Positions 1-26,762 of a stretch of DNA of 64,000 nt are shown in pieces. The stretch is from NCBI GenBank assembly GCA_020631905.1, contig JACKGQ010000001.1, positions 357,854-421,853 of the forward strand, in the 5' to 3' direction. Within the stretch, counting starts at the first letter, position 1. The number at the start of each line of letters is the position of its first letter. The translations under genes were made by a program, and so were the position numbers. Below the pieces are notes generated by a model, which did not search any database, was not told the origin of the DNA, and saw only the letters and a program-made list of their open reading frames with translations. Source of the DNA: Candidatus Nomurabacteria bacterium (GTDB lineage Bacteria; Patescibacteriota; Saccharimonadia; Saccharimonadales; VXPC01).

Positions 1-775
<775 letters not shown>

Positions 776-1058
776 TGATTTATATATTCGCTAAATTGTG
801 GAGTATATAGACTCTTTTTGAGAGTTTATTTCAACTCCATTAACTGGTTTAACCAGCGTGCGAGTATATAAATTCTTCCCTAGGGAAGAGATGTGTCAAA
901 TGGTTTGTTCTTGGTGTTTTATAACACCCACACAATAATAAATATGACTCTATGTGAGTCAACGATTCGACCGCCTTAATTGGACGTCGAAAAATGTCGC
1001 CGAGCAGCTGGCACCTCGTTTTACTGAGGTTTATTGCCTAAACTTCGTCGCGACATCT

Positions 1059-1172
1059 TTCGGTGCCCATAGCGATCGGGAAACACCTGTTCCCATCCCG
1101 AACACAGAAGTTAAGCCGATCTACGGTTACAATACTGCAGCTTAAGCTGTGGGAAAATAGCAAGGTGCCGAA
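1059..1172 (+). rRNA. rrf: 5S rRNA
   Basis: Conserved 5S core cctgttcccatcccgaacacagaagttaagc. Terminal helix I pairs ttcggtgcc (1059-1067) with ggtgccgaa (1164-1172): 9 bp including 2 G-U pairs. Length 114 nt. Confidence 0.9.
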
Positions 1173-1181
1173 TTATGCTTC

Positions 1182-1213
1182 AGAGCCTCCTTAATGGGAG
1201 GCTCTTTGCTTTT
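1182..1213 (+). terminator. Rho-independent terminator of the rRNA operon
   Basis: Stem agagcctcc / ggaggctct with loop ttaatg, followed by ttgctttt. A second 9-bp hairpin aggagggga-gta-tcccctcct follows at 1214-1234. Confidence 0.7.
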
Positions 1214-1344
1214 AGGAGGGGAGTATCCCCTCCTAACGCGCAGGGCACCGGAATAAATCCGGTACTCTGGCTGTTCTCCCCTGGAATATGTATAGATTTT
1301 AGCGAAGTGAATCGCCAAGATCTATAATGCTATAATCAATCAAT

Positions 1345-1920
1345 ATGCGTAAACCATACGTAAAAGACCTAAGGGTACTAGATGGGCAACTAAAAGGGTT
1401 GCTAGATGATGAGATTGTAGATCGTAGCGAGGTGGGTGTGCTGCAAGATAGAATTAATAGCTTTAGTGATAGCTACACCGACGAAGATTTAGGGGAACAC
1501 GCTTACAAACTATACGAGATACAAGCCTACGCACTCTTTCTAAAGGATGACATTAAAAACGCAGAGAAGTTCTTGAGTGATGCTATTAGTCTTAGGGGAA
1601 GGAATTATTATGAAGCTAGTGTTCTCTCAAGGTTTATTGAGGATAAGAAAATTTACATACAAAAGTATGTTGTGAATCAAGTCAAACATCATGGAAAAGT
1701 TGAAATTCTAAAAGGGCTTGCTTGGTTTATCGTGGCCACAATAATAACTTCTGTTTCTTACGCATGGGCCGGTAGCCGAGCAGAGAGTTCCGCTGACGGT
1801 GAGTCAAGTTACTATGTTTTTTGGGGCGCGATGCTATTTGGCTTATACACACTTGGAAGAGGGATCTATCTCTATGCTAGCTCTTACGCTAAAGCCAAAC
1901 AAATATTGGATAGGCTGTAA
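1345..1920 (+). CDS. hypothetical protein with soluble helical N-terminal part and two C-terminal TM segments
   Basis: 191-aa ORF. Hydrophobic stretches LAWFIVATIITSVSYAW and VFWGAMLFGLYTLGRGIYLYA. I recognise no family. Confidence 0.5.
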   Translation: MRKPYVKDLRVLDGQLKGLLDDEIVDRSEVGVLQDRINSFSDSYTDEDLGEHAYKLYEIQAYALFLKDDIKNAEKFLSDAISLRGRNYYEASVLSRFIEDKKIYIQKYVVNQVKHHGKVEILKGLAWFIVATIITSVSYAWAGSRAESSADGESSYYVFWGAMLFGLYTLGRGIYLYASSYAKAKQILDRL

Positions 1921-1922
1921 GA

Positions 1923-2561
1923 TTAAGGGAGTAATTTAAACTTGGGTGGTGGGTTTAGTTTTTGGCGGCGGGTGATTATCATTAGGGCAAAACCGCCGTT
2001 TAGTACTGCCCACACGGCTGGCCACAGGGTAGCTAGCAGGCTGTAGTTTTCGATTGCCAGCAGGGCAAAACCAAACCTAAAGGTGTTGGTTACGTAAAGC
2101 GACAGGGTCTCGGTATACGGTTTATGCCAGGTTTTACGTACAGTTGGGGCAATTGCCAGCACATCGGCAATAACAGCCAAAATAATCGACCACTCGGGCA
2201 AATCTGCTAACAGCCAAAAGGCAATGGCCCCTAGCGCCAATATAAACACAGCTGTGTCGAACTTAGTTATATATTTGGTGCCTTGCTTAAAGCCAAAATA
2301 AGTCACCCCTACAGACAGCACCCCGGCTGCCACTGTAATGTAAGTGCCAGGCCCAGCACCGCCCTTAAACTGCAAAGCAGCAATCAGAATGGTTAACAGT
2401 GCCCATAAGAACCAGCTGTAGAGGTGCGGGTGGGTTTTACCTCTAAACAAGTCTCGATAGTACGGCACATAGCCAACAAAAGTTAAAACAACCGCAACAA
2501 TTCCTATAACTTCTTTCATGAATAGAAGTATACATAAACAAGTACGCAAACTATAAATCAA
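1923..2561 (-). CDS. multi-pass integral membrane protein (unknown family)
   Basis: 212-aa ORF that is almost entirely hydrophobic helices (about 6-7 TM). The ATG at 2519 (MKEVIGIVAV...) is an equally plausible start. Confidence 0.6.
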   Translation of the reverse strand: MIYSLRTCLCILLFMKEVIGIVAVVLTFVGYVPYYRDLFRGKTHPHLYSWFLWALLTILIAALQFKGGAGPGTYITVAAGVLSVGVTYFGFKQGTKYITKFDTAVFILALGAIAFWLLADLPEWSIILAVIADVLAIAPTVRKTWHKPYTETLSLYVTNTFRFGFALLAIENYSLLATLWPAVWAVLNGGFALMIITRRQKLNPPPKFKLLP

Positions 2562-2608
2562 GCCAAGATACCTGTTTTTGATCTGTTAGTTCCTTTTAGG
2601 CAAAAAAT

Positions 2609-2637
2609 TTGATAAGTAATCCATAAAGTGTTATAAT
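2609..2637 (+). promoter_or_regulatory. sigma70-type promoter for the 2666 gene
   Basis: ttgata (2609-2614), a 17-nt spacer, then tataat (2632-2637), about 29 nt upstream of the ATG. Confidence 0.45.
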
Positions 2638-2665
2638 GATAGCTGTAAAAGTAAAATAAAAAAAG

Positions 2666-3211
2666 ATGAAAACAGAATCAATTTCAAGCACACTCCCCGA
2701 CATAATATTGGAGGGCGGTGTCACCAACGAGAACGCTCCATGCGCTCTAGATATAGCGCAAAGACTACAGGGTCTTGGTGTAGCTAGTGATGCCATTGCC
2801 GGCACTACGGTGATAGTTGATGACAGGAATAGGCTCACAACAAGGGGCTCTGCATGGCCTGCGGGTCTGGCAAAAATAAGGTTTCGCAAGTATAAACCTG
2901 AAGGGCCTGTTATTTCCTTAGGGACAAAACTCAGAGGTAAACCCATCACACCTGATCAACGCGATACTACGGTTCAGCACGAGCTGATTCACGTTGCGCA
3001 AGATCTAGATCCGAATAATCACAAGATTGAACAAGGATGGGCATTAAGAGTAGGTGCAATAGCAGCCGGAGCAGTTCTTGGCTATAAGGTGGCTGGAGCA
3101 AAGGGTGCTTTTGCGGGTGTCGTGCTGGGTGACAGGCTTGGTTATACCTATGGGCCACATGAAGTCGAAGCTAGAAAACTGTCGAATAAGGGCGGCACCA
3201 GTATTAGGTAA
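2666..3211 (+). CDS. hypothetical small HExxH protein (putative metallopeptidase-like)
   Basis: 181 aa. HELIH motif (TTVQHELIHVAQD) followed by a Gly/Ala-rich hydrophobic segment. Its 3' end overlaps the convergent 3204 gene by 8 nt. Confidence 0.5.
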   Translation: MKTESISSTLPDIILEGGVTNENAPCALDIAQRLQGLGVASDAIAGTTVIVDDRNRLTTRGSAWPAGLAKIRFRKYKPEGPVISLGTKLRGKPITPDQRDTTVQHELIHVAQDLDPNNHKIEQGWALRVGAIAAGAVLGYKVAGAKGAFAGVVLGDRLGYTYGPHEVEARKLSNKGGTSIR

Positions 3212-3857
3212 GAGCTAGGATTTCTTGTGGGGTCATGTGGGCGAGGTCTTGGATTTTTAGGTTAGGGTTTTTGGCTAGGACTTGGTCAATAAACCACACT
3301 CCAGCTTTATAAACTATCCATTTGCGGCCTGATTCGGGGTCGTAGAACTTATACTTGCGCCAATCGTCCCAACTTAACTCTTTGGGCAGAGTTTGAAGCA
3401 TAGCAAACATGGCATCCGGGTTCTCGCCAACTAGTGGCATGGCGTAATCAACCGGTCTACCAGTGGTCTCACGCTCGTATACGCAAGCAGCGCCTTCCAT
3501 GATTGCCTGGCTAACCATATCGGTAGCGTTGGTATATTTGCTTTCAAACATTGCCCAGCCCTGGGCTATGTGAAACATCTCGTGCTTAATTGTAGCCTCT
3601 AGTGCTTGCATTTGTAGTGCTTTATCTGCAAATTCGGGGGCAAAACTCAAGTGCAGCAGGCTAGGTGTAACAGTGGCGCCACCACAACCATAATCTTCCA
3701 TCAGCTGATTATTGTCCCACTCCCAAGTTACGGTATCCGGTATTCCAGGCAGCTCTGCTCGAACTTGATCGACCCACCCCTTAACTAGCGGCTCCAAGGG
3801 TTCAGTAATAGATTTATCAACTGGCATCGGTTGCCATTTCATAGACTCATCATTCAT
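3204..3857 (-). CDS. putative Zn-dependent peptidase (HExxH; DUF2268-like by memory)
   Basis: 217 aa. HEMFH motif (TIKHEMFHIAQG) with a downstream MEGAACVYE that could supply the third ligand. The family assignment is from memory only. Confidence 0.55.
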   Translation of the reverse strand: MNDESMKWQPMPVDKSITEPLEPLVKGWVDQVRAELPGIPDTVTWEWDNNQLMEDYGCGGATVTPSLLHLSFAPEFADKALQMQALEATIKHEMFHIAQGWAMFESKYTNATDMVSQAIMEGAACVYERETTGRPVDYAMPLVGENPDAMFAMLQTLPKELSWDDWRKYKFYDPESGRKWIVYKAGVWFIDQVLAKNPNLKIQDLAHMTPQEILALT

Positions 3858-3987
3858 AAAAGAATATTAACACGTTTACATAATTGTAAAGTTAAGTAAA
3901 AAGTTATACAATATGTTTATAATTCCTTCGAAAGTTCGAGGGTCGCTCATAGCAGAGTAAGGGAGGGCTCGTAATCCTAATACGGGC

Positions 3988-4503
3988 ATGTACATCAAGG
4001 AGGTGAGCCAAGTGGCTCGCGTTGAAATTTCCGATGGTCCATCGCCCTGGCACTTAATGCTGGCGATGTTCGACCCACACCCCGAGAATGCGCACGGTGA
4101 GCGTATCGTGATATTCAGGCTCAAGGTTGGGCCAGGGTGGCCTCTGAATGTCAAGGTGCGTGGAGTCGTGCGTCCCAAGCGAGAGAGTATGAACGACCCG
4201 TGGACAATCGTGGGTGACGCCATGAACCTGCCGAGGGGCTACTACTACTACGATGGGCTCGAAGTTCACTGGGATCCGTTCGGCCGTGAGGGCTGGATCG
4301 ATCTGGAGCTGACGTCGTCATGCCATGCGGCGGTGATTCGCGCCACGCTTGCCGATGGTATTCTGGCTGGTTATTGCAGTCGGTGTGATCGGCCGGTTAC
4401 AAGAATTCACCCGGTCAGCGGTAAGCTCGAATGGCTCGATGGCGCTTCGCTATGGTCGAACGAAGTGCACGAAGAGGTGGTCATGCTGTACAACCGGAAC
4501 TGA
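3988..4503 (+). CDS. hypothetical protein, compositionally foreign (G+C-rich)
   Basis: 171-aa ORF with an intrinsic terminator just downstream. Hand-counted G+C in three 60-nt lines (4021, 4081, 4261) is 53%, 60% and 60%, against 37% in line 4621. C-terminal CxxC (CSRCDRP). No recognisable family. Confidence 0.6.
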   Translation: MYIKEVSQVARVEISDGPSPWHLMLAMFDPHPENAHGERIVIFRLKVGPGWPLNVKVRGVVRPKRESMNDPWTIVGDAMNLPRGYYYYDGLEVHWDPFGREGWIDLELTSSCHAAVIRATLADGILAGYCSRCDRPVTRIHPVSGKLEWLDGASLWSNEVHEEVVMLYNRN

Positions 4504-4553
4504 TTTGGAAGATGTACGGGTGTGGTGAGCTGAAATAGGACTCACCAGCCCTG

Positions 4554-4581
4554 GCGACTTGATTAATCAAGTCGCTTTTTA
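4554..4581 (+). terminator. Rho-independent terminator after the G+C-rich ORF
   Basis: Perfect 22-nt palindrome gcgacttgatt/aatcaagtcgc followed by ttttt. Confidence 0.7.
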
Positions 4582-4620
4582 ATTGTTGTGGGGTACTATT
4601 TAATCCTTGTTCTTAAAGTT

Positions 4621-4697
4621 GAAACTAGGCGTATGAAAGATACGAATTTATTGTTTTGGTGCCAAGATAACACCTTGAGTGAAAAGTTTTTTACAAA
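4621..4697 (+). repeat. Direct repeat copy 1 (partner 5378-5453): duplicated RBS plus 5' end of the VOC gene
   Basis: gaaactagg...atgaaag...aatttattgttttggtgccaagataacaccttgagtgaaaagtttt. A 46-nt perfect core (4645-4690 = 5402-5447), with 4 mismatches in the 24 nt before it. Confidence 0.85.
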
Positions 4698-4728
4698 AGA
4701 CGGCTCTAGACAGTCTTACATTTATTAG
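4633..4728 (+). pseudogene. Truncated 5' fragment of a VOC/glyoxalase-family gene (32 codons, then stop)
   Basis: Encodes MKDTNLLFWCQDNTLSEKFF... compared with the intact gene MKVTNLLFWCQDNTLSEKFY... at 5390. Similarity ends at c.4697 and the frame stops at tag 4726-4728. Confidence 0.65.
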
Positions 4729-4850
4729 GATTATATAATCCTAATTCTTTTAAGGTTTGTACTTAAGCTTCCTGATGCGTTCTAGGCGTTTAAGTCGGTT
4801 TTTCTCTCTTAGTTTCTTAGCACGGTCTAGATTTAAATAGAGTCGATTAG

Positions 4851-5288
4851 TTAATTTTGGAAATGAATACCCATGGTTGTTACGGATGAAATAGGGAAAA
4901 TAAACAACATCCCAGGCAACAATAGAAATATTAATGGTTTACTGATAAGCACAGAGGCATAAGCTAGCCCAACGCACTGGCCGATATATATCCCAAATAA
5001 CAGTAACTTGTAAAAAAAGTTCTGAAAAGGGTGATTCTTGATGTAAATATATTCTGATGACGGCTTAGGACAGTGTCTTCCGCCACCAGTTAGAGTTCCA
5101 CTGATTTCACTCATTAGTTCAAGCCTCTCGCTAAAGTGCCTCTGATTTACTGGTGCTCCACAATAGCGATTTTTCTTTTTTGAACCTATGGCAGTAAACC
5201 TTTTATACGTATGTCTAACTAATATAAAAACCAGAATAGGTGACAGGAATACGAATAAGAGCAAACTGTAACCTGTTAGATAATCCAT
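4851..5288 (-). CDS. hypothetical membrane protein
   Basis: 145 aa with one N-terminal and two or three C-terminal hydrophobic helices. It lies inside the AT-rich segment bracketed by the 4621/5378 direct repeats. Confidence 0.45.
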   Translation of the reverse strand: MDYLTGYSLLLFVFLSPILVFILVRHTYKRFTAIGSKKKNRYCGAPVNQRHFSERLELMSEISGTLTGGGRHCPKPSSEYIYIKNHPFQNFFYKLLLFGIYIGQCVGLAYASVLISKPLIFLLLPGMLFIFPISSVTTMGIHFQN

Positions 5289-5389
5289 AGTCCTTAGTAT
5301 ACAGCTTAAGCATTCTCAATCCGTTGATAAGCGTATACTGTTGTAAGATTTACTTTGAAAACAAATCAGTATAGTTCGAAACTAGGTAT

Positions 5390-5764
5390 ATGAAAGTTAC
5401 AAATTTATTGTTTTGGTGCCAAGATAACACCTTGAGTGAAAAGTTTTACAAAAAGCTCGGATTTGAGCGGGTCGAGGGTGACGATCAATACACTAGGCTT
5501 AGATTGGGTGGTTTTGAAGTTGTGCTGATTACTATGCGCGACGAAGACGAATTCGCCAAAGACAGTCTTAACCCCGAAAAAGGTCGGGGTATGTATGTTT
5601 ATCTGCAGGTCGAAGATGTCGATGCCGAATACACTCGGCAGTTAAAGATTGGCCTTAAACCGTCTACCGAGCCCCAAAACTGGCCTTGGGGAAATCGCGA
5701 GTTTATCCTCAAAGACCCAGATGGTTATAAGTTGGTATTTTGGCAAAAAGTGGGGAATTCATGA
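5390..5764 (+). CDS. VOC (glyoxalase/bleomycin-resistance/dioxygenase) family protein
   Basis: 124 aa. Typical VOC beta-alpha-beta-beta-beta pattern, ending FILKDPDGYKLVFWQ. Confidence 0.7.
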   Translation: MKVTNLLFWCQDNTLSEKFYKKLGFERVEGDDQYTRLRLGGFEVVLITMRDEDEFAKDSLNPEKGRGMYVYLQVEDVDAEYTRQLKIGLKPSTEPQNWPWGNREFILKDPDGYKLVFWQKVGNS

Positions 5765-6246
5765 AGGTAGAGTTAAACCTAGAAGAACTTAGAGTATTTC
5801 TTAATAAAGCTGATAAGCCACATGCCGACGGCACGGCCAAGATAGTCCGCGAACCGGATGGTTCGAGTTCGATTAGCTTTGCTGACGGTAACTGGAAAAT
5901 GCACGACAACTTCTTTGGTGGTGAGCCTTATGGTGGCCGACAAGTAGTTTACTTCAAGAACCAACCAGTCTGGCTGTTTGTATATTACGGCCAGATTACC
6001 GACAAGTCGTTGGATGTACATCCTATCTATAACTTTCTTAGAAAGAGTTTACAACAAGCTCCGGTCAATGGCTTTAGTCGCGGTCCGGCGAGTTACAGGG
6101 ACGGCAGTCTTGAATACAGAAACCAGGCCACAGGTAGTCTCGAATCTTTTAAGGGCAGAGAAGTGATACTATCGAACGACACACAAGTTTACTGGGCCGA
6201 ATATATGGGAGGTTTAGTCGATATTCATGCCAGGGGCGAATATTAA
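5761..6246 (+). CDS. hypothetical protein (DUF5680-like by memory)
   Basis: The ATG at 5761 overlaps the VOC stop (ATGA), suggesting translational coupling. An alternative in-frame ATG lies at 5740. The motif HDNFFGGEPYGGRQVVYFKNQPVWLFVYYG resembles DUF5680 proteins; this is not verified. Confidence 0.55.
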   Translation: MKVELNLEELRVFLNKADKPHADGTAKIVREPDGSSSISFADGNWKMHDNFFGGEPYGGRQVVYFKNQPVWLFVYYGQITDKSLDVHPIYNFLRKSLQQAPVNGFSRGPASYRDGSLEYRNQATGSLESFKGREVILSNDTQVYWAEYMGGLVDIHARGEY

Positions 6247-6265
6247 CTATCTAAACAAAAGCATA

Positions 6266-6294
6266 TTGACACATAAGCAATAGCGTGATACAAT
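6266..6294 (+). promoter_or_regulatory. sigma70-type promoter for the KGG stress-protein gene
   Basis: ttgaca (6266-6271), a 17-nt spacer, then tacaat (6289-6294). Confidence 0.45.
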
Positions 6295-6360
6295 AGCTAC
6301 ACATAAGGAGGGGTTCCGTAATCGGGCCCCTTCTTTTTATTAATAATTAGGAGAGATGTG

Positions 6361-6585
6361 ATGGCAGGAAACGCTAAAGGTGGCAAACTAGCCGCCAAAA
6401 CTAATCGTCAACGTCATGGTGCCGACTTTTATGCCCGTATTGGTGCAAAAGGTGGCCGCAAGAGCAAAACTGGTGGTTTTGCTAGTAGTGTCGTTGGTAA
6501 AGATGGCTTGACTGGCCGCGAGCGAGCAAAACTTGTTGGCGCACGAGGTGGCACTGTTAGCCGCCGAACCAAGAGCGCTAAATAA
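6361..6585 (+). CDS. KGG-repeat general stress protein (YciG/con-10 type)
   Basis: Small basic protein with repeated KGG/GG motifs (NAKGGKLAA, GAKGGRKSKTGGF, GARGGTVSRR). SD aggag lies 7 nt upstream of ATG 6361. The ORF track starts at GTG 6358. Confidence 0.75.
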   Translation: MAGNAKGGKLAAKTNRQRHGADFYARIGAKGGRKSKTGGFASSVVGKDGLTGRERAKLVGARGGTVSRRTKSAK

Positions 6586-6597
6586 GGCACGATTTAC

Positions 6598-6629
6598 AAA
6601 AACCAGTTCAGTAAAATGAACTGGTTTTT
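6598..6629. terminator. Bidirectional terminator between convergent genes
   Basis: aaaaaccagttca-gtaaaa-tgaactggttttt. The 13-bp stem has an A-tract on one side and a T-tract on the other. Confidence 0.7.
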
Positions 6630-6634
6630 GTGTT

Positions 6635-7099
6635 TTAGTTAGTCTTTAGTAATCTTCGACGAGTTGCGCATGTCTGTTCGTCTGGTACCGACCATTTGTT
6701 TGAGCAGTTAATACAGTGGTAATTTAGGCTTCTAGATGATTGAATACCAACTAAGCGACAGTCTGGGCAGGTGGCTCGCGATAGTAGCCAATCACGGTAT
6801 GTATCTAGGCAGTCTTCGATGTGGTCGTTAGGTATCTCTATGCCGTAGTGCTTGGCGATCACGATAGCCCGTTCCCAGGCTTCACGCTCAATCTCGATTA
6901 GTTCGGTGTCGGTGTGAAAGTTTTGGTGATCGCTTAGTGCGTGGCCAAGCTCGTGGAGCAAGCTGTACGTACCGGTTGTCTGCGCAAGTTGCTCGGAGCA
7001 ATAAATGAGCTCGTTTTTGGCTGGCGACCAAACAAATTTGCTACCATCGACGAATTTAATGTCTGGGTAGTCTGTTTTTAAATTTTCTAGTAACTCCAC
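6635..7099 (-). CDS. ImmA/IrrE-like HExxH metallopeptidase-domain protein with C-terminal zinc ribbon
   Basis: 154 aa. LLHELGHALSDH motif and a C-terminal CPDC...CINC pair. It sits 5 nt downstream of the ROK gene on the same strand. Confidence 0.55.
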   Translation of the reverse strand: MELLENLKTDYPDIKFVDGSKFVWSPAKNELIYCSEQLAQTTGTYSLLHELGHALSDHQNFHTDTELIEIEREAWERAIVIAKHYGIEIPNDHIEDCLDTYRDWLLSRATCPDCRLVGIQSSRSLNYHCINCSNKWSVPDEQTCATRRRLLKTN

Positions 7100-7104
7100 G
7101 ATAT

Positions 7105-7917
7105 CTACGCTTCGCCGTCGAGCTGTTTTGCCAGTTGCCAGGCGCCCAAGATAACTGCTTCCTCAGGTCGTGATGCTTGAACTATTCTCGGTATATCGAC
7201 AAGTGGTGGTTTGATCTTTTTGAGCTCTTCGCCAAGGATATCTTTATACTTAGAAAAATGCGTACCAACTCCGCCACCGATAATTATGTAGTTGGGCTTA
7301 AACATACTTAGAATATTAATAATACCGTGGGCTAGAATTGCGCAGATTTCGTGCCAGGAGGCGGGATCGTTCAAATCAGAGGCTCGTTTACCGTAGTCGC
7401 GCACGATTGCACTACCAGAGGCCAGTTTCTCGAACATTACTAGTTGGCCATTGTGTTCTATCAGCATCTCGCCAGGTTCACTGTCGAGGTGTTCTGGGTC
7501 TAGGCGCCCATCTGTTACTACACCTCCACCAATCCCAGTGCTAACAGTTAAATAAAGGCACTGGTGCGGGTGTTCGTTGAGAGCATAGTATTCTCCTAGT
7601 CCTGCCAAATTTGCATCGTTTTCGATTCGTACTGGACTACCTAATTTTGCTTCCAGATCTGCTTGTAGGGGTACATTTTTCCAAGGTAAGTTTCCAAAGC
7701 CTATTACCTTACCATGGTGTCTATCTATTTTTCCTGGAGCACCAATTACAATTGTTCCGTCGCTTTTAGGTTTGCCTTCTAGGGCTTTTGCTACTGCCAA
7801 GACTAGATCTGCATATTCTTTAGGTGTTTCAAACTTGATACTCGTAACAATCTCGCCAGCTTCATCTAGCCAGGCGATGAGTGTTTTTGTGCCCCCGATG
7901 TCGATACAGATTCTCAT
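7105..7917 (-). CDS. ROK-family sugar kinase (glucokinase-like)
   Basis: N-terminal ICIDIGGTKT, ENDANLAGLGE and TVSTGIGGGVV. The usual CxCGxxGCxE zinc motif is absent. Confidence 0.8.
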   Translation of the reverse strand: MRICIDIGGTKTLIAWLDEAGEIVTSIKFETPKEYADLVLAVAKALEGKPKSDGTIVIGAPGKIDRHHGKVIGFGNLPWKNVPLQADLEAKLGSPVRIENDANLAGLGEYYALNEHPHQCLYLTVSTGIGGGVVTDGRLDPEHLDSEPGEMLIEHNGQLVMFEKLASGSAIVRDYGKRASDLNDPASWHEICAILAHGIINILSMFKPNYIIIGGGVGTHFSKYKDILGEELKKIKPPLVDIPRIVQASRPEEAVILGAWQLAKQLDGEA

Positions 7918-20449: not shown

Positions 20450-20510
20450 AGCATGCTATGTGTGAGGTGTGTTTCAAAACAAACAAATATTAATTAATGA
20501 GGGTACAAAT

Positions 20511-23285
20511 ATGACACAAAATACGCTGTTGGCGCCAAAGCGCTTATTTACTAAACCGGGGAGCAAAGCTTACGAAGACCTCCAGTGGGAAAAGCGAGAA
20601 TCAAAACTAGTAAACCCGTCGACCGGAGAAATAGTTTTTGAGCAAAATAATCTAGAATTTCCGGTTGGCTGGTCGCAGAATGCGATAAATATTGTTGCCC
20701 AGAAATACTTTACTGGTACACCTGGTACCAAAGATCGGGAACACTCCCTAAAACAGCTTATTAATCGTGTTGTCGAGACTGTTGCCAAACACGGCCTAAA
20801 AGAGGGTTATTTTGCGGATGAAGCAGAGGTAGAGGTTTTTTGTGAAGAATTAAGATACATCCTAGCTACTCAGAGGGCCTCGTTTAATTCACCTGTATGG
20901 TTTAATATCGGCGTTCCAGACCGCTCGCAACAGGCAAGTGCCTGTTTTATTCTGGGTGTTGAAGATACTATGAGCTCCATCCTAAACTGGTACACCGAAG
21001 AGGGCGTGATTTTTAAAGGTGGTTCTGGGGCCGGAGTTAACCTAAGTCGGATTCGATCCTCGAAAGAGCTACTATCTGGCAGTGGCGGCTATGCGAGTGG
21101 ACCAGTTAGCTTTATGCGTGGCGCCGACGCAAGTGCCGGCACAATTAAGTCTGGTGGTAAAACTCGACGAGCAGCCAAAATGGTAATTCTAGATGTCGAG
21201 CATCCAGATATCGAAGAGTTCATCTGGTGCAAAGCTCGCGAAGAACGTAAAAGTAGAGCCCTAACTGAGGCTGGTTTCGACATGAGCTTGAATGGTGCTG
21301 ATGCTTTCAGCATACAGTACCAGAATGCCAATAACTCAGTTCGTGTGACTGATGATTTTATGCATGCAGTTGAGCAAGACGCAGACTGGAGCCTGAACGC
21401 GGTTACTACCGGTAAGGCGGTTGAAACAGTAAAGGCCAGGGAACTATTTCACCAGATAGCCGAAGCCGCCTGGGAATGTGCAGATCCGGGCCTGCAATTC
21501 GACACAACAATCAATAAATGGCACACAACACCAAATGCTGGTCGGATTAACGGTAGTAATCCCTGCAGTGAATATATGCACCTCGATAATTCTGCCTGTA
21601 ATCTAGCTAGTATCAACTTACTCAAGTACCTGAAAGCCGATGGTAGCTTCGACACTAGTCAATTTAAGCACACGGTCGAGATTGTTTTTACTGCCCAAGA
21701 GATATTAGTAGGTTATTCAGAATACCCAACCGAGTCTATTGCTAAAAACGCTAGAGCATACCGTGAGCTAGGAATGGGGTATGCAAACCTCGGTGCACTG
21801 CTAATGGCACAAGGATTACCATATGATTCAGATGAGGGTCGAGCACAGGCTGCTAGCATCACCGCCCTAATGACAGGCCATGCCTATGCTACCAGTGCTC
21901 GAATAGCCAGAAGAGTTGGGCCTTTTGCTGGGTATCATAAAGATCGTGAAAATATGAACAAGATAATTAAGCTGCATCGGCAAGCCGTTTCAGATATTGA
22001 TGCAAGTATGGTTCGTGAAGATCTCCTCAGTGCAGCCACCACAGCTTGGGATGAAGCTGTTGAGCTGAGTGAGCTATATGGAGTGCGCAACTCACAAGCT
22101 ACCGTGCTAGCACCTACCGGCACCATCGGTTTAATGATGGATTGCGACACAACCGGCATCGAACCAGACCTAGGCTTAGTAAAACTTAAGACCCTTGTGG
22201 GTGGTGGTTCGATGACAATTGTCAATCAGACAATTCCACAGGCTCTACACACTCTTGGCTACAACAAGGCACAAATTAAAGAGATAACAGAATATATCGA
22301 TGTAGAAAAGACAATAGTAGGGGCGCCACATCTTAAGCAAAAAGACCTCCCTGTCTTTGCTTGCTCTATGGGTGATAACCCGATTCACTACTTAGGCCAT
22401 ATTAAGATGATGGGCGCTGTTCAGCCATTCCTATCGGGCGCAATTAGCAAGACGGTTAATATGCCAGAGAATGTTTCTGTTGAAGAGGTAGAGCAGCTTC
22501 ATATGGAGTCGTGGAAGCTTGGCCTCAAAGCAGTCGCAATATATCGTGATAACTGTAAAGTTGCTCAACCGCTCAAGATGGCCAAAAAAGATTCTGATAC
22601 TTCGGATGTAGATAAGACCGTGCCTTTAACATCTGATGGCTCAAACAGTGGATTCATCTTAAAAGGCGCCGTGCGCAAGAAAATGCCGAAAGTGCGCAAC
22701 TCGAAAACATTCTCCTTTAAAATTTCTGGTAGTAGTGGCTATGTGACTGTTGGTGAATACGAAGATGGCAACCCAGGAGAAGTATTCATGAGTGTGGCCA
22801 AGCAAGGCTCAACTCTGGCAGGCATCATGGACGCGTTTGCGATTAGCGTTAGTCATGGTCTCCAGTACGGGGTACCTCTCAAAAGCTATGTAAAGGCGTT
22901 CATAAATATGTCCTTTGCCCCAGCCGGTATCACCGACGATACAGACATCCGGACAGCTAGTTCGATAGTCGACTATATTTTTAGAAAGCTGGCTGGATTA
23001 TACCTGTCTTTCGACGATCGTTTAGAGCTAGGTCTTGCAAGTATTGATGACATGGAGCATCAAATAACAGATAGGCAAGTTAGTTTAGATGTAGACATAA
23101 GCACAACGGATAGTTTAGGCACAGAAGATGAAATAATCGAGTCGAGCACTAAAATAACTGCTCAAAAAGTAACAAAAGTTCTCGACACATCTGGCCCAAT
23201 GTGTTTTAACTGTGGCAATCAAACACAAAGAAGTGGCAGCTGTTACGTGTGTACGGCGTGTGGGACAACAACCGGCTGTAGCTAA
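20511..23285 (+). CDS. nrdJ: adenosylcobalamin-dependent (class II) ribonucleotide reductase
   Basis: About 925 aa from ATG 20511 (SD gaggg 8 nt upstream). Active-site region SNPCSEYMHLDNSACNLASINL and a C-terminal redox/zinc tail CFNCG...CYVCTACG. The ORF track extends to 20469. Confidence 0.9.
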   Translation: MTQNTLLAPKRLFTKPGSKAYEDLQWEKRESKLVNPSTGEIVFEQNNLEFPVGWSQNAINIVAQKYFTGTPGTKDREHSLKQLINRVVETVAKHGLKEGYFADEAEVEVFCEELRYILATQRASFNSPVWFNIGVPDRSQQASACFILGVEDTMSSILNWYTEEGVIFKGGSGAGVNLSRIRSSKELLSGSGGYASGPVSFMRGADASAGTIKSGGKTRRAAKMVILDVEHPDIEEFIWCKAREERKSRALTEAGFDMSLNGADAFSIQYQNANNSVRVTDDFMHAVEQDADWSLNAVTTGKAVETVKARELFHQIAEAAWECADPGLQFDTTINKWHTTPNAGRINGSNPCSEYMHLDNSACNLASINLLKYLKADGSFDTSQFKHTVEIVFTAQEILVGYSEYPTESIAKNARAYRELGMGYANLGALLMAQGLPYDSDEGRAQAASITALMTGHAYATSARIARRVGPFAGYHKDRENMNKIIKLHRQAVSDIDASMVREDLLSAATTAWDEAVELSELYGVRNSQATVLAPTGTIGLMMDCDTTGIEPDLGLVKLKTLVGGGSMTIVNQTIPQALHTLGYNKAQIKEITEYIDVEKTIVGAPHLKQKDLPVFACSMGDNPIHYLGHIKMMGAVQPFLSGAISKTVNMPENVSVEEVEQLHMESWKLGLKAVAIYRDNCKVAQPLKMAKKDSDTSDVDKTVPLTSDGSNSGFILKGAVRKKMPKVRNSKTFSFKISGSSGYVTVGEYEDGNPGEVFMSVAKQGSTLAGIMDAFAISVSHGLQYGVPLKSYVKAFINMSFAPAGITDDTDIRTASSIVDYIFRKLAGLYLSFDDRLELGLASIDDMEHQITDRQVSLDVDISTTDSLGTEDEIIESSTKITAQKVTKVLDTSGPMCFNCGNQTQRSGSCYVCTACGTTTGCS

Positions 23286-23306
23286 AACAATAGTGTTTAT
23301 GTATAA

Positions 23307-23339
23307 TATACCCTCAGAGATGAGGGTATATTTATTTTA
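23307..23339 (+). terminator. Rho-independent terminator after nrdJ
   Basis: Stem tataccctca / tgagggtata with loop gaga, followed by tttatttta. Confidence 0.65.
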
Positions 23340-23580
23340 TCGTTCACATACCGAAAACGAACCAGTGATTCGTGATTTTATGCATGATCTTAAAGGTCGT
23401 GGAGAAAATGATATTCAACTTATGGACTTAAATACCAGAGATGGCAGCTCGCTAGCTTCGCTGTACGATGTTATGCAAACACCAAGCCTGCTCGTAACAT
23501 CCGACGACGGTCAAGTGGTTAATCTATCACAGGGCACTCTGCCTTTAGCAAACGATGTGTCTTACTACACACATCAATAA
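23320..23580 (+). CDS. small thioredoxin-fold-like protein lacking the CxxC motif (hypothetical)
   Basis: 86 aa from ATG 23320, with a glutaredoxin/NrdH-like secondary-structure pattern: VYLFYRS, a helix, IQLMDL, then QTPSLLV (cis-Pro position), then DGQVV. It has no cysteines. The start lies inside the nrdJ terminator hairpin, so expression is uncertain. Confidence 0.4.
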   Translation: MRVYLFYRSHTENEPVIRDFMHDLKGRGENDIQLMDLNTRDGSSLASLYDVMQTPSLLVTSDDGQVVNLSQGTLPLANDVSYYTHQ

Positions 23581-23674
23581 ACAAGTACTGTCCCAGGGTA
23601 CGACCTTGCAATAATTTCACTCTTTATAGTACTTGTGTTACAATTTACTCACAATTTACAAAATACGTTTCACA

Positions 23675-23849
23675 AACAGTGAATGAGTGGTTATCAGCCA
23701 CGAAGTAGGAGAAAGAAAGCCATTACGGCAAGTAAAATCTCTCGCCAGATGTCCGCGTAAGTGACAGTAACCAAAAGTGTCTGTAAATCAGAAACTTGGA
23801 TGGTACCTCCTATTACAAGGATCCAAGCATATAACATATAGGGATTCTT
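23675..23849 (+). promoter_or_regulatory. T-box riboswitch leader (Ile specifier), apparently acting on translation
   Basis: Hairpin gtgg-ttATCag-ccac (23687-23701) presents the Ile codon AUC followed by A, flanked by agtga / cgaag (GA-motif-like). The antiterminator-type element is canonical: helix cttgga (23795-23800) / tccaag (23822-23827), a 7-nt bulge tggtacc (23801-23807, i.e. UGGNACC), and helix tcct/agga. The 3' strand aaggatcc (23817-23824) can instead pair with ggattctt (23842-23849), which covers the aggga SD just before ATG 23850. Confidence 0.7.
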
Positions 23850-26762
23850 ATGAAATACACTAAATTACCCAAAACTAGTCATGCTGAGCTTGAAAAAAAG
23901 CTTATTAAAAAGTGGAAAGCAGATAAAACTTTCGAAAAAAGTGTTGCTTTTAGGAGTTCTGATAATGGCTATGTTTTCTACGATGGTCCACCTTTTATTA
24001 CAGGACAACCACACCACGGTACGCTGCTATCTAGTGTCGTTAAAGATGTAGTGCCTCGATTCTGGACAATGAAAGGCAAGCGCGTTGAACGGCGTTGGGG
24101 CTGGGATTGTCATGGACTACCTGCAGAGGTTTTTACAGAGAAAAAGCTCGGAATTCACGACAAACGCGATATAGGCAACAAAATCAGCCTCGAAGATTAT
24201 ATTATTACCTGTCGTGAAAACATGATTCAGACTGGCAGCGAGTGGGAAGATACTATCGACAGAATTGGTCGCTGGGTCGAGTTTAAGAATGCCTACAAAA
24301 CTATGGACAAAGACTTTATGGAAAGTGTCTGGTGGGCGTTTAAAACGCTATACGACAAAGGTAGTATCTATGAAGGTGAAAAAGTCCTGATGTACTGTAC
24401 GCGAGATGCTACGCCGCTTGCAAAGGCCGAAATAGCCATGGATAACTCTTACCAGGATGTGACAGATCCTAGTGTCTATGTACGTTTTAAACTTTCTAGA
24501 ACTGCCAATACCAAACTTGGCCTAAAAAGTGCAAGCCTACTAGCTTGGACTACAACACCGTGGACTTTACCGTCTAATAGTGCTTTAGCCATAGATCGAA
24601 ATATAAACTACGTGGCCGTTGAGCTCGATGGGGAGATACTTGTACTTGCCGAAGATTTACTCGATAAAGCTTTGACCGACGAAAAACACCAAGTATTGGT
24701 ATATAAAAAGCTTAAAACAATCACTGGAAAACAGCTCGAAGGCATGAGCTATGAACCACTTTTTGAGCCCGTAGAAGTACTCAAGCACGAAAATGCTTTC
24801 AAGATATGGCATGCAGATTTTATTCATACAGATGAAGGCACGGGTATTGCACACGAATCACCCGCATATGGTGAAGAAGACTACGAGCTGAGTAAGCAGA
24901 ACGATATACCCTGGGTAATGTCTACAGATGAGAATGGCTTTTTTACCATGGGAGATTGGCTGGGTCATAATATCTGGGAGGTAAACAAACAGATAGCCAA
25001 AGAGCTCAAAGAACGCGGTATAGTCTGGAAGATTGAGTACATTACGCACAGCTATCCACATTGCCATCGCTGTCAAACAAAACTGATGTACCGGGCCCAT
25101 CCTAGCTGGTTTATGGATATTGCTAGCCAAAGACACGAAATGCTTGAAACGAACAAAGAAATTAATTGGTGGCCGAAACATATAAAAAATGGTCGATTTA
25201 AAAATACTGTCGATAGCGCACCGGACTGGAACTTGTCTCGTGACAGATTTTGGGCGACTCCACTACCTGTATGGCGTGGTAAAGACGACAACGGAGTAAC
25301 TCACACCAAAGTGTTAGGTAGCTACAAAGAACTAGAAAAGCTGTCTGGCGTGGTCTTAAAAGACTATCATCGACCGTGGATAGATGATGTTACATTTACA
25401 ATAGATGGTGTTAAATATGAACGCATAGACAAGGTTATGGATAGCTGGTTCGAGGCTGGGTCTATGCCTTTTGCGCAATATCATTATCCGTTCGAGAATA
25501 AGCAACAGTTCGAACAAAATTTCCCCGGAGACTTTATTGTCGAGTATGTAGCTCAGGTGAGAGCCTGGTTTTACTACATGCATGCTGTTTCTATAGGGCT
25601 GTTTGGTAAACCAGCTTTCAAAAACGTTGTAGTAACGGGCACGATAGCCGGTAATGATGGTCGCAAAATGAGCAAAAGTTTTGGCAACTATACCGATCCA
25701 GTCGAGCTTGTCGATACCTACAGTGCCGATGCGTACCGACTACTATTAGTCGGCTCACCACTATTAAACGGCGAAGATTATGCCTTAATCGACAAAGATG
25801 TAGCGGATGTCCATCGTAAGTTAACTACGTTAATGAACACATTAGATTTCTTTATTTTGTACGCTGAGGCAGATAACTGGCAATCTAAACCAGAACACCT
25901 AATTGCTCCAGACTCTACCAACATCCTTGATCGCTGGGTGCTATCAGTTTACGAAGATCTAAGGGCTCATGTAGAGCAGCATATGTTGGTCTACGATTTA
26001 CCTAACGCCGTAAAGACAGTTGGTCAATTTATCGATGATCTTTCGAATTGGTACGTTAGACGCAGTCGAAAGCGCTTCTGGAAGTCGATAAACGACAACG
26101 ACAAGGAGATGGCCTACCATACTCTGTATTACATATTAGTTAACTTCTCGAAAGTTTTAGCACCGTTTGCACCGTTCATGGCCGATTATATCTATCAGCA
26201 GGTGAGTGGTGATGAACAGTCGGTCCACTTGCAAGATTGGCCTGATGCAATCGCTAAGGATGCAGATTTACTCGAGGTGATGCAACGAACCAGAACCTAT
26301 ATTACGGATGGACTAGCCGCTCGAGCCGAATCTGGAATTAAGGTTCGCCAACCGCTCGCCAAATTAACTATTTACGACAATCAAGAGCTAGCCGCCGATG
26401 TGCTAGAAATAGTTGCCGAAGAAATGAATGTTAAGCAAGTCAGCTTTGAAGTCTCTAAGCAATACAATATATTGCTGGATACAGATCTGACCAACGATCT
26501 TATTGCAGAAGGTGCAATTAGGGAATTTGTGCGACTTGTTCAGCAAAGTCGAAAACAAATTGGGTTAGATATTAGCGACCATATAAAACTAGAGTTTAAA
26601 GCCGACACACTGGCAAAAGCGGCAATTAAAGACCATGAGGCATATATTCAGACCGAAACCCTGGCAGATGCGGTTGAAGAAGTCGTTGGCCTAGAGGGTG
26701 ATTCGGAGAAGATTTATAAGTCAGATGCTTGGGGTGTTGTTTTTAGGGTATCTAAAATATAG
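23850..26762 (+). CDS. ileS: isoleucyl-tRNA synthetase (type 2, eukaryote-like signature)
   Basis: PPFITGQPHHGTLLSS (HIGH region in the PPF.TG.PH.G style of type 2 enzymes), the CP1 editing region and KMSKS (DGRKMSKSFGNY). 970 aa. Confidence 0.95.
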   Translation: MKYTKLPKTSHAELEKKLIKKWKADKTFEKSVAFRSSDNGYVFYDGPPFITGQPHHGTLLSSVVKDVVPRFWTMKGKRVERRWGWDCHGLPAEVFTEKKLGIHDKRDIGNKISLEDYIITCRENMIQTGSEWEDTIDRIGRWVEFKNAYKTMDKDFMESVWWAFKTLYDKGSIYEGEKVLMYCTRDATPLAKAEIAMDNSYQDVTDPSVYVRFKLSRTANTKLGLKSASLLAWTTTPWTLPSNSALAIDRNINYVAVELDGEILVLAEDLLDKALTDEKHQVLVYKKLKTITGKQLEGMSYEPLFEPVEVLKHENAFKIWHADFIHTDEGTGIAHESPAYGEEDYELSKQNDIPWVMSTDENGFFTMGDWLGHNIWEVNKQIAKELKERGIVWKIEYITHSYPHCHRCQTKLMYRAHPSWFMDIASQRHEMLETNKEINWWPKHIKNGRFKNTVDSAPDWNLSRDRFWATPLPVWRGKDDNGVTHTKVLGSYKELEKLSGVVLKDYHRPWIDDVTFTIDGVKYERIDKVMDSWFEAGSMPFAQYHYPFENKQQFEQNFPGDFIVEYVAQVRAWFYYMHAVSIGLFGKPAFKNVVVTGTIAGNDGRKMSKSFGNYTDPVELVDTYSADAYRLLLVGSPLLNGEDYALIDKDVADVHRKLTTLMNTLDFFILYAEADNWQSKPEHLIAPDSTNILDRWVLSVYEDLRAHVEQHMLVYDLPNAVKTVGQFIDDLSNWYVRRSRKRFWKSINDNDKEMAYHTLYYILVNFSKVLAPFAPFMADYIYQQVSGDEQSVHLQDWPDAIAKDADLLEVMQRTRTYITDGLAARAESGIKVRQPLAKLTIYDNQELAADVLEIVAEEMNVKQVSFEVSKQYNILLDTDLTNDLIAEGAIREFVRLVQQSRKQIGLDISDHIKLEFKADTLAKAAIKDHEAYIQTETLADAVEEVVGLEGDSEKIYKSDAWGVVFRVSKI

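Follow-up and report, generated by a model that had tools for sequence, protein, structure and literature searches.

A short-Stem-I isoleucine T-box upstream of ileS in a Saccharibacteria genome and its plausible Shine–Dalgarno-masking platform

Introduction

Does the isoleucyl-tRNA synthetase gene of a Saccharibacteria genome stand behind a tRNA-sensing leader, and by what output would such a leader act? The question is raised by a 64,000-nucleotide (nt) stretch of contig JACKGQ010000001.1 (assembly GCA_020631905.1), hereafter the window, whose own numbering we use and on whose forward strand all features of the leader lie. In it, ileS, which encodes an isoleucine–tRNA ligase of 970 amino acids (aa) at 23850..26762 on the forward strand (TIGR00392, 801.5 bits against a cut-off of 621), is preceded at 23664-23849 by a complete T-box with a short Stem I. 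The original prediction, made by a model from the letters alone, had read an isoleucine-specific, translational T-box here and called the host similar to the Candidate Phyla Radiation (CPR); by its IleS matches the host indeed belongs to the Saccharibacteria (TM7, CPR/Patescibacteria), a phylum of obligate symbionts with reduced genomes. We conclude from sequence comparison that the leader is a genuine isoleucine T-box, with identity and specificity established beyond reasonable doubt, and ileS is the gene that the leader at 23664-23849 would regulate. As to its output, translational control by sequestration of the Shine–Dalgarno (SD) sequence is the best single explanation, one to which we give a little more than an even chance; SD sequestration in the window is plausible but unproven.

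T-boxes are the classic riboswitches for tRNA sensing. In the sources consulted they have been described mainly from Gram-positive bacteria and the translational class mostly from Actinobacteria, and TBDB searched for that class in Actinobacteria only. By a stated rule, a transcriptional T-box requires a long Stem I (PMC7583486). In the searchable literature, itself incomplete, T-boxes of Saccharibacteria, CPR or Patescibacteria were nowhere mentioned, and the papers that bring up both riboswitches and Saccharibacteria report no native T-box.

A T-box family below the curated threshold

What speaks against a T-box at this locus is the silence of the curated model. The original prediction had proposed a search with Rfam RF00230 as a check, and cmscan returned no T-box match, neither in the 64-kb window at the gathering score nor in 23560-23900 at E ≤ 10, which formally counts against the prediction; 17 relatives had no match at the gathering score either. 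A permissive scan, however, scored relatives at 32.6-73.7 bits (E of 1.4e-3 to 3.7e-14; cut-off 93), for instance loci L012 at 73.7 (E 3.7e-14), L125 at 46.4, L088 at 39.1 and L005 at 32.6 bits. RF00230 aligns these relatives across model positions 1-219 with roughly 74 Stem I positions deleted, and it is this deletion that makes Rfam fail. Since relatives match below the threshold and a family-specific model is decisive, we read the miss as a false negative.

That family covariance model (R1) was built from 17 relatives with the window left out. It matches the window at 23675-23830 over its full length, with 87.5 bits, no non-canonical pair and an E value of about 1.5e-20, which like all R1 E values is rough owing to a shortened calibration; elsewhere in the 64 kb it finds only an 11-bit fragment (E = 0.19), consistent with chance. 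Across 162 ileS loci drawn from genomes and metagenomes, R1 yields 92 matches, 75 of them unique. A regular-expression survey for TGGNACC in the 450 nt before ileS badly under-counted the family, as it overlooked UGGUAUC and UGGUAAC bulges and leaders about 1 kb upstream.

Applied to a MAFFT alignment of 18 compact leaders, RNAalifold recovers Stem I, the two parts of Stem II, Stem IIA and the helices A1 and A2, and 21 of 25 pairs show compensatory changes. When the 75 distinct leaders are fitted to the model, the 25 core pairs are 97.4% paired, 22 of them change on both sides, and pairing falls to 26-48% if partners are slid against each other; this alignment leans towards the model, and the MAFFT result agrees with it. 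The check on covariation in homologous leaders, also proposed with the prediction, is thereby borne out for the core.

A chance intergenic resemblance would account for RF00230 finding nothing, whether at the gathering score or with E ≤ 10, but it would have to produce a family-model E value near 1e-20, strong covariation in 75 leaders, significant sub-threshold Rfam matches to relatives, and an AUC and a UGGU that fit tRNA-Ile(GAU) and its discriminator base A73 upstream of ileS; we regard it as vanishingly improbable. We take the family to be a truncated-Stem-I T-box that the curated Rfam threshold has overlooked.

Decoding module and match to tRNA-Ile

As read from the letters, the Stem I domain (23664..23707) is closed by a base helix UAC (23664-66)/GUA (23705-07), whose counterparts in relatives, judged by eye, are UGC/GCA, GAC/GUC or AAC/GUU. 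Its 5' bulge holds GUU and an inserted hairpin, UCAC-aaaca-GUGA (23670-82), and a tandem, K-turn-like GA motif is present on both flanks (GA 23685-86 and GA 23702-03). Above it stands the specifier hairpin GUGG-UUAUCAG-CCAC (23687..23701), with a 4-bp stem and a 7-nt loop in which the specifier codon AUC (23693-23695) is followed by a conserved purine, A23696; specifier, short hairpin and GA-type motif all lie where they had been predicted. Among the 75 leaders, the four stem pairs all covary, 98% of cells are paired, and AUC occupies the specifier loop in 74. The distal platform of Stem I, that is, the distal bulge and loop that bind the tRNA elbow, is absent, Stem I amounting to a 4-bp hairpin with a 7-nt loop. 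Because accepted actinobacterial ileS T-boxes lack this platform too, its absence does not exclude membership, and the predicted assignment to the isoleucine-specific, short-Stem-I leaders of ileS holds, with the specifier in a terminal loop and the module set of the actinobacterial ileS T-boxes.

Stem II, the Stem IIA region, Stem III with its flanks, and the base helix with the inserted hairpin go beyond the elements listed in the prediction. Stem II (23708..23742) is formed by GGAGA (23708-12) pairing with UCUCU (23738-42) and by an upper helix, GCC (23719-21)/GGC (23727-29); RNAalifold recovers both, and all pairs covary in the 75 leaders (5/5 in the base helix, 3/3 in the upper one). Its conserved purine strands read AAGAAA and AAGUAAAA in the window, AGUAGA/AGAAA-type motifs are near-invariant across Stem II of the leaders, and from these strands we assign it an S-turn. 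In the adjoining region (23743..23766), Stem IIA pairs CGC (23743-45) with GCG (23755-57) and is 98% paired in the 75 leaders, an F-box-like GCGUAA lies at 23755-60, and the loop UGUC (23750-53) and the linker GACA (23763-66) form the Stem IIB pseudoknot. Complementarity between this loop and linker averages 3.56 nt across leaders, against 3.01 ± 0.07 in 500 permutations, with partner sequences that vary from leader to leader.

The discriminator begins with the purine string AAGUG (23775-79), followed by Stem III, UCUG-uaaau-CAGA (23780-92), and by AA (23793-94), in keeping with the RRRxG–Stem III–AA motif defined in PMC7583486; the Stem III hairpin ends at most 4 nt from A1 in 66 of 73 relatives, and the AA flank is found in 64 of the 73. 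The antiterminator or antisequestrator element that the prediction had described follows at 23795..23827 and comprises A1, CUUGGA (23795-800)/UCCAAG (23822-27), the 7-nt T-box bulge UGGUACC (23801-07), and A2, UCCU-auuaca-AGGA (23808-21). Over the 75 leaders pairing reaches 99% in A1, where 5 of 6 pairs covary, and 98% in A2, where all 4 do; UGGU opens the bulge in 73, one leader having UGGC. The remainder of the bulge varies, with UGGUAUC in 26 of the 75 leaders (for example L129) and UGGUAAC in 3, against the usual UGGUACC; L095, L014, L011, L038 and L121 are further examples of leaders with bulge variants.

The tRNA-Ile of the same genome, encoded in the rRNA operon some 3.1 kb before the window start, has the anticodon GAU, which the AUC specifier upstream of ileS matches, and its 3' end reads ...CAGCCCC-A-CCA. 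Its discriminator base is A (A73), as the prediction had presumed, and therefore complements the U of UGGU.

A candidate SD-masking platform

A1 ends 22 nt before the AUG at 23850, and the SD, AGGGA (23840-44), lies 5 nt before it. As predicted, the stretch from the element to the AUG has neither a U-tract nor a site that resembles a terminator, the window being the sole such case among 76 leaders. The alternative pairing that had been proposed to overlap the SD is there: in this putative sequestrator (23817..23849), the 3' strands of A2 and A1, AAGGAUCC (23817-24), find their complement in GGAUUCUU (23842-49). The helix has 8 bp with one G•U, overlaps the SD, reaches the base before the AUG, encloses a mini-hairpin, excludes A1/A2 and is present in the minimum-free-energy (MFE) structure of the leader, and its complementarity exceeds that of shuffled tails (p = 0.005; p = 0.025 if GGGA is kept fixed). 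GGAUUCUU reproduces, without the bulge, the last letters of the A1 5' strand (GGA) and then the A2 5' strand (UCCU), which is the canonical design; UUGGAGCU stands in the same relation to UUGGA plus GCUC in L050, and the Stem III region of the window resembles that subgroup. In the window, the strand contains the SD and is followed by AUG instead of U's.

Under translational control, the short Stem I would present AUC-A, in its 7-nt terminal loop above the GA motif, to tRNA-Ile(GAU), with the S-turn Stem II as well as the Stem IIA/B pseudoknot supporting decoding, and UGGU of the bulge would pair with the 3'-ACCA end of an uncharged tRNA. With the usual terminator absent from this genome and the element abutting the start codon, bound, uncharged tRNA-Ile would hold A1/A2 and leave the SD AGGGA free. 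With no tRNA, or with charged tRNA, AAGGAUCC would pair with GGAUUCUU, bury the SD as far as the AUG and lower ileS translation. The tRNA binding, the switch and the translational output are all inferred.

Folding both conformers, as had been suggested, favours the OFF state in the full leader (-47.0 kcal/mol when constrained, against -39.5 for ON; ensembles -52.8 against -44.6, a gap of about 8 kcal/mol), with the SD bases 23842-48 paired at P~1. The isolated elements give the reverse, as taken up below.

Terminators in the relatives

A U-rich tract follows A1 in all 75 unique relatives, typically 9-20 nt downstream. We classed the terminators by simple duplex energies, which was feasible for 73 of the 75 (A1 was not located in 2). 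In 64 of these, the partner of the strand ahead of the U-tract is the loop plus 3' strand of Stem III; the 3' strands of A2 and A1 stay out of this pairing, and the terminator forms one long hairpin that carries an undisturbed A1/bulge/A2 at its tip. An instance of this enclosing pairing is AAUCACUUCUUUUG with CAAAAGAAGUGAUU, and loci with it include L001 (1403-1485), L004 (1383-1472), L014 and L088. The canonical topology occurs in 5 of the 73 (L036, L041, L050, L121 and L052), and 4 are unclear. Pairing in the enclosing helix amounts to 91%, against 35-58% when slid, 11 of its 15 pairs change on both sides, it overlaps the 3' strand of Stem III in 63 of the 73 leaders, and its mean energy is -16.1 kcal/mol compared to -7.3 for Stem III.

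Because the tRNA 3' end reportedly cannot be captured without Stem III (PMC7583486), a toggle between terminator and Stem III is a plausible mechanism for the relatives. The terminator would then enclose the intact A1/bulge/A2 and not unzip the antiterminator, and tRNA sensing would be read out through the stability of Stem III. We found no description of this topology in the searchable, incomplete literature. Tentatively, and with somewhat less than an even chance of being right, the Saccharibacteria ileS leaders may constitute an undescribed T-box class that combines an ultrashort Stem I with termination by a terminator invading Stem III, the window's lineage representing a natural conversion from transcriptional to translational control.

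An enclosing, Stem III-competing helix was also sought in the window itself and rejected, as only an irregular duplex of -8.3 kcal/mol could be formed. Leader identities are flat (65-71%), and the tail of the window could derive from an enclosing or a canonical terminator; signals of its ancestry conflict, as it resembles AAAUAGGGAUUUUU of L010, but Stem III and the canonical design resemble L050.

Some relatives depart from the general picture. In L060, L141 and L142 (~1380-1440) the stretch leading into the U-tract, GGUGGCAUGUCGG, complements the 5' strand of the T-box together with the bulge, CCGAGAUGGUACC, possibly a third topology, for which duplex energies of -10.9 versus -11.4 do not separate it from the enclosing type. 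A distance of 0.6-1.1 kb, with at least one other gene between, separates the T-box from the ileS downstream of it at many loci, among them, with ileS starting at 1501, L024, L018, L021 (element at 361-524), L086 (531-693) and L109 (632-822), and further L113/L114, L009, L028 and others; because genes intervene, such a leader would control an operon and not ileS alone. A short open reading frame (ORF) lies between terminator and ileS in L034 (~1360-1500), L134 (~1340-1500) and L145 (~1345-1500). These ORFs share, by eye, an apparent motif ..RMTDSEA...D.R.HMG.FA.FIDM..RG.. and may encode a conserved small protein that is co-regulated with ileS.

Competing explanations

The predicted translational architecture stands in that the helix exists, overlaps the SD and beats shuffled tails. 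It does not stand as a shared design: all 75 relatives bear terminators, and the sequestering pairing is conserved in none of them, so that in the proposed homologue check this part formally counts against the prediction and the pairing is known from one sequence. Beyond these two comparative findings, several others weigh against SD sequestration. The isolated sequestrator hairpin (-6.6 kcal/mol) is weaker than the A1/A2 element alone (-8.1 kcal/mol), and since A1/A2 is the more stable, these energies are the reverse of what a default-OFF switch would have; all energies, moreover, leave out pseudoknots and tertiary contacts. Energetics nevertheless do not exclude a translational switch, because the gap between conformers is also small in the ileS T-box of Mycobacterium tuberculosis (PMC11297988). 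The R1 score of the window is among the lower ones of the Saccharibacteria matches, its Stem III, of only 4 bp, does not form in the local MFE structure, and the closing pair of A2 is U-A where 44 of the 75 relatives have a G•U wobble, a pair described as a steric sensor (PMC7583486). AGGGA, finally, is a modest SD against an anti-SD of ...ACCUCCUUU-3'.

Much of this would equally be expected if the aptamer were intact and its platform lost, with the terminator 3' strand, the U-tract and the old SD deleted or remodelled, the helix a leftover of the terminator, and ileS constitutive or only marginally dependent on tRNA. The weak isolated sequestrator, the cut-down Stem III with the lowish R1 score and the replaced G•U sensor pair fit such a loss, as does the lone absence of a U-rich tract among 76 leaders; the tail from bulge to AUG measures only 49 nt, against ~60-210 nt in relatives, and AUAGGGAUU resembles the terminator 3' strand AAAUAGGGAUUUUU of L010/L013. 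A useless aptamer should decay, however, and here all 25 core pairs and the family-invariant core residues are kept in a deeply diverged lineage: no relative shares more than 66-68% identity in IleS, and yet the aptamer has stayed whole, which points to continued selection on it. Even the remodelled Stem III region retains a hairpin between RRRxG and AA, the helix is better than shuffled tails, and the full leader prefers the OFF fold. On balance we consider loss of the platform unlikely, though it is the main rival and well worth keeping in mind.

The leader might also be a functional T-box with some other output, be it the anti-SD-like A2 5' strand, a local SD/AUG hairpin, or attenuation dependent on Rho or an RNase. 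UCCUAU (23808-13, from the A2 5' strand) can pair with AUAGGG (23838-43) over 6 bp, and the 3' part of the bulge with the A2 5' strand, UACCUCCU (23804-11), recurs letter for letter as 8 nt at the 3' end of this genome's 16S rRNA, the anti-SD (located at ~238-245 of L163). UACCUCCU could pair with that AUAGGG or with the SD-like GUAGGAGA (~23704-23711), and the full-leader MFE does pair CCUCCUAU with GUAGGAGA of Stem II. The local MFE structure of 23775-23865, in turn, retains A1/A2 and folds SD and AUG into a small, weak hairpin, UAUAGG/CUUAUG. Yet none of these pairings is as long as the 8-bp helix or finds support in a comparison, and 6-mer complementarity is expected by chance in a 200-nt RNA, so that we hold such outputs to be improbable. 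SD sequestration stays the explanation that we prefer, at the strength given at the outset: the aptamer and a Stem III with purine flanks have outlasted the terminator in this deeply diverged lineage, and a competitor helix of canonical design lies exactly on the SD.

Comparison with known systems

Translational ileS T-boxes of Actinobacteria (the M. tuberculosis ileS leader; TBDB class II) were reportedly described by Sherwood et al. in 2015. Judged from reviews and later papers, the window is like them in regulating ileS, in its AUC specifier, in a Stem I without the distal tRNA-elbow platform, in having Stem II, the IIA/B pseudoknot, Stem III and A1/bulge/A2, in the absence of a terminator, and in that the 3' strands of A2 and A1 cover the SD in an alternative helix; a small energy gap between sequestrator and antisequestrator is likewise shared with the M. 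tuberculosis leader (PMC11297988). It differs from them in its Saccharibacteria (Patescibacteria) host and its 75 terminator-bearing relatives, in a sequestrator of only 8 bp that alone is weaker than A1/A2, in the hairpin inserted in the GA-motif bulge, and in an A2 closed by U-A and not G•U. Because those relatives carry terminators, the translational form looks lineage-specific and not like an inherited design of the actinobacterial type; it probably arose within the window's own lineage. The comparison yielded no evidence for the special evolutionary link to Actinobacteria that had been suggested, and the family as a whole terminates transcription and is not translational.

With the canonical transcriptional T-box (RF00230; tyrS and glyQS of Firmicutes) the window shares what reads by eye as a GA motif, the specifier followed by a purine, the S-turn Stem II, the IIA/B pseudoknot with F-box, RRRxG–Stem III–AA, and a UGGNACC bulge whose N matches the tRNA discriminator, whereas some 74 Stem I model positions and the terminator are absent. 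To the Saccharibacteria/CPR ileS clade it belongs by the same decoding module and discriminator and by a full-length model match, but unlike that clade it has neither an enclosing nor a canonical terminator.

Locus and relatedness

A small unannotated ORF ends at 23580, and the T-box sits in the 269 nt that separate it from ileS at 23850. A consensus scan alone picks out a promoter-like site at 23616..23644 on the forward strand (TTCACT, a 17-nt spacer and TG-n-TACAAT; 9 of 12 matches, with the TG of an extended -10), from which a transcript would start at about 23651. The start of IleS, MKY..., lines up with the MKF... starts of relatives, and downstream of ileS lies rplU (L21; 26835-27143, PF00829).

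Further upstream, nrdJ (20469-23285) is directly followed by a 12-bp hairpin and U-tract at 23305-23342. Because of this hairpin, the small ORF, called as 23212-23580 (122 aa), probably begins later, and a shorter version of 86 aa (23320-23580) matches the annotation in GCA_020428525.1. It matched no Pfam or NCBIfam family; the C-terminus of its protein (..PL.N.VSYYT..) recurs upstream of the T-box in relatives, for example in L001.

Among species-representative genomes, the top IleS matches are all metagenome-assembled genomes of Candidatus Saccharibacteria, at 55-68% identity, and identical copies aside, neither a genome scan, a metagenome scan nor a search of 5.8 billion proteins found a relative above 66-68%. 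Two other assemblies, in contigs with an identical IleS, carry a leader that is 100% identical, so that three assemblies agree and the leader is not an assembly artefact. Of the nearest IleS relatives tried, L161 has a terminator and L162 is without a leader in the 600 nt upstream.

Locus L163, which is 100% identical to window 1-7677, carries the rRNA operon at 1-5839 (window 1-1173 being its 3' part). The operon is unusual in that a gene for a SET-domain protein (L163 594-1049) lies between 16S and the tRNAs, which come in the order tRNA-Ala, tRNA-Ile, the latter at L163 1496-1572; its 23S gene spans 3589 nt against a model of 2925 positions, which implies large insertions.

Implications

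In this reduced-genome, obligate-symbiont phylum, ileS is thus preceded by a T-box below the Rfam gathering cut-off, and annotation by that score (93 bits) would miss the CPR leaders, the best of those tested reaching 73.7 bits. According to authors in the field, Patescibacteria are still without inducible expression systems, and a native tRNA-responsive leader could become a regulatory tool. The Saccharibacteria clade, with its ultrashort Stem I and its terminator, challenges the long-Stem-I rule for transcriptional T-boxes, and the apparent new switching geometry, terminator versus Stem III, is testable in vitro. The leader of the window would be a natural experiment within this clade, in which an SD-masking platform stands in place of a terminator platform.

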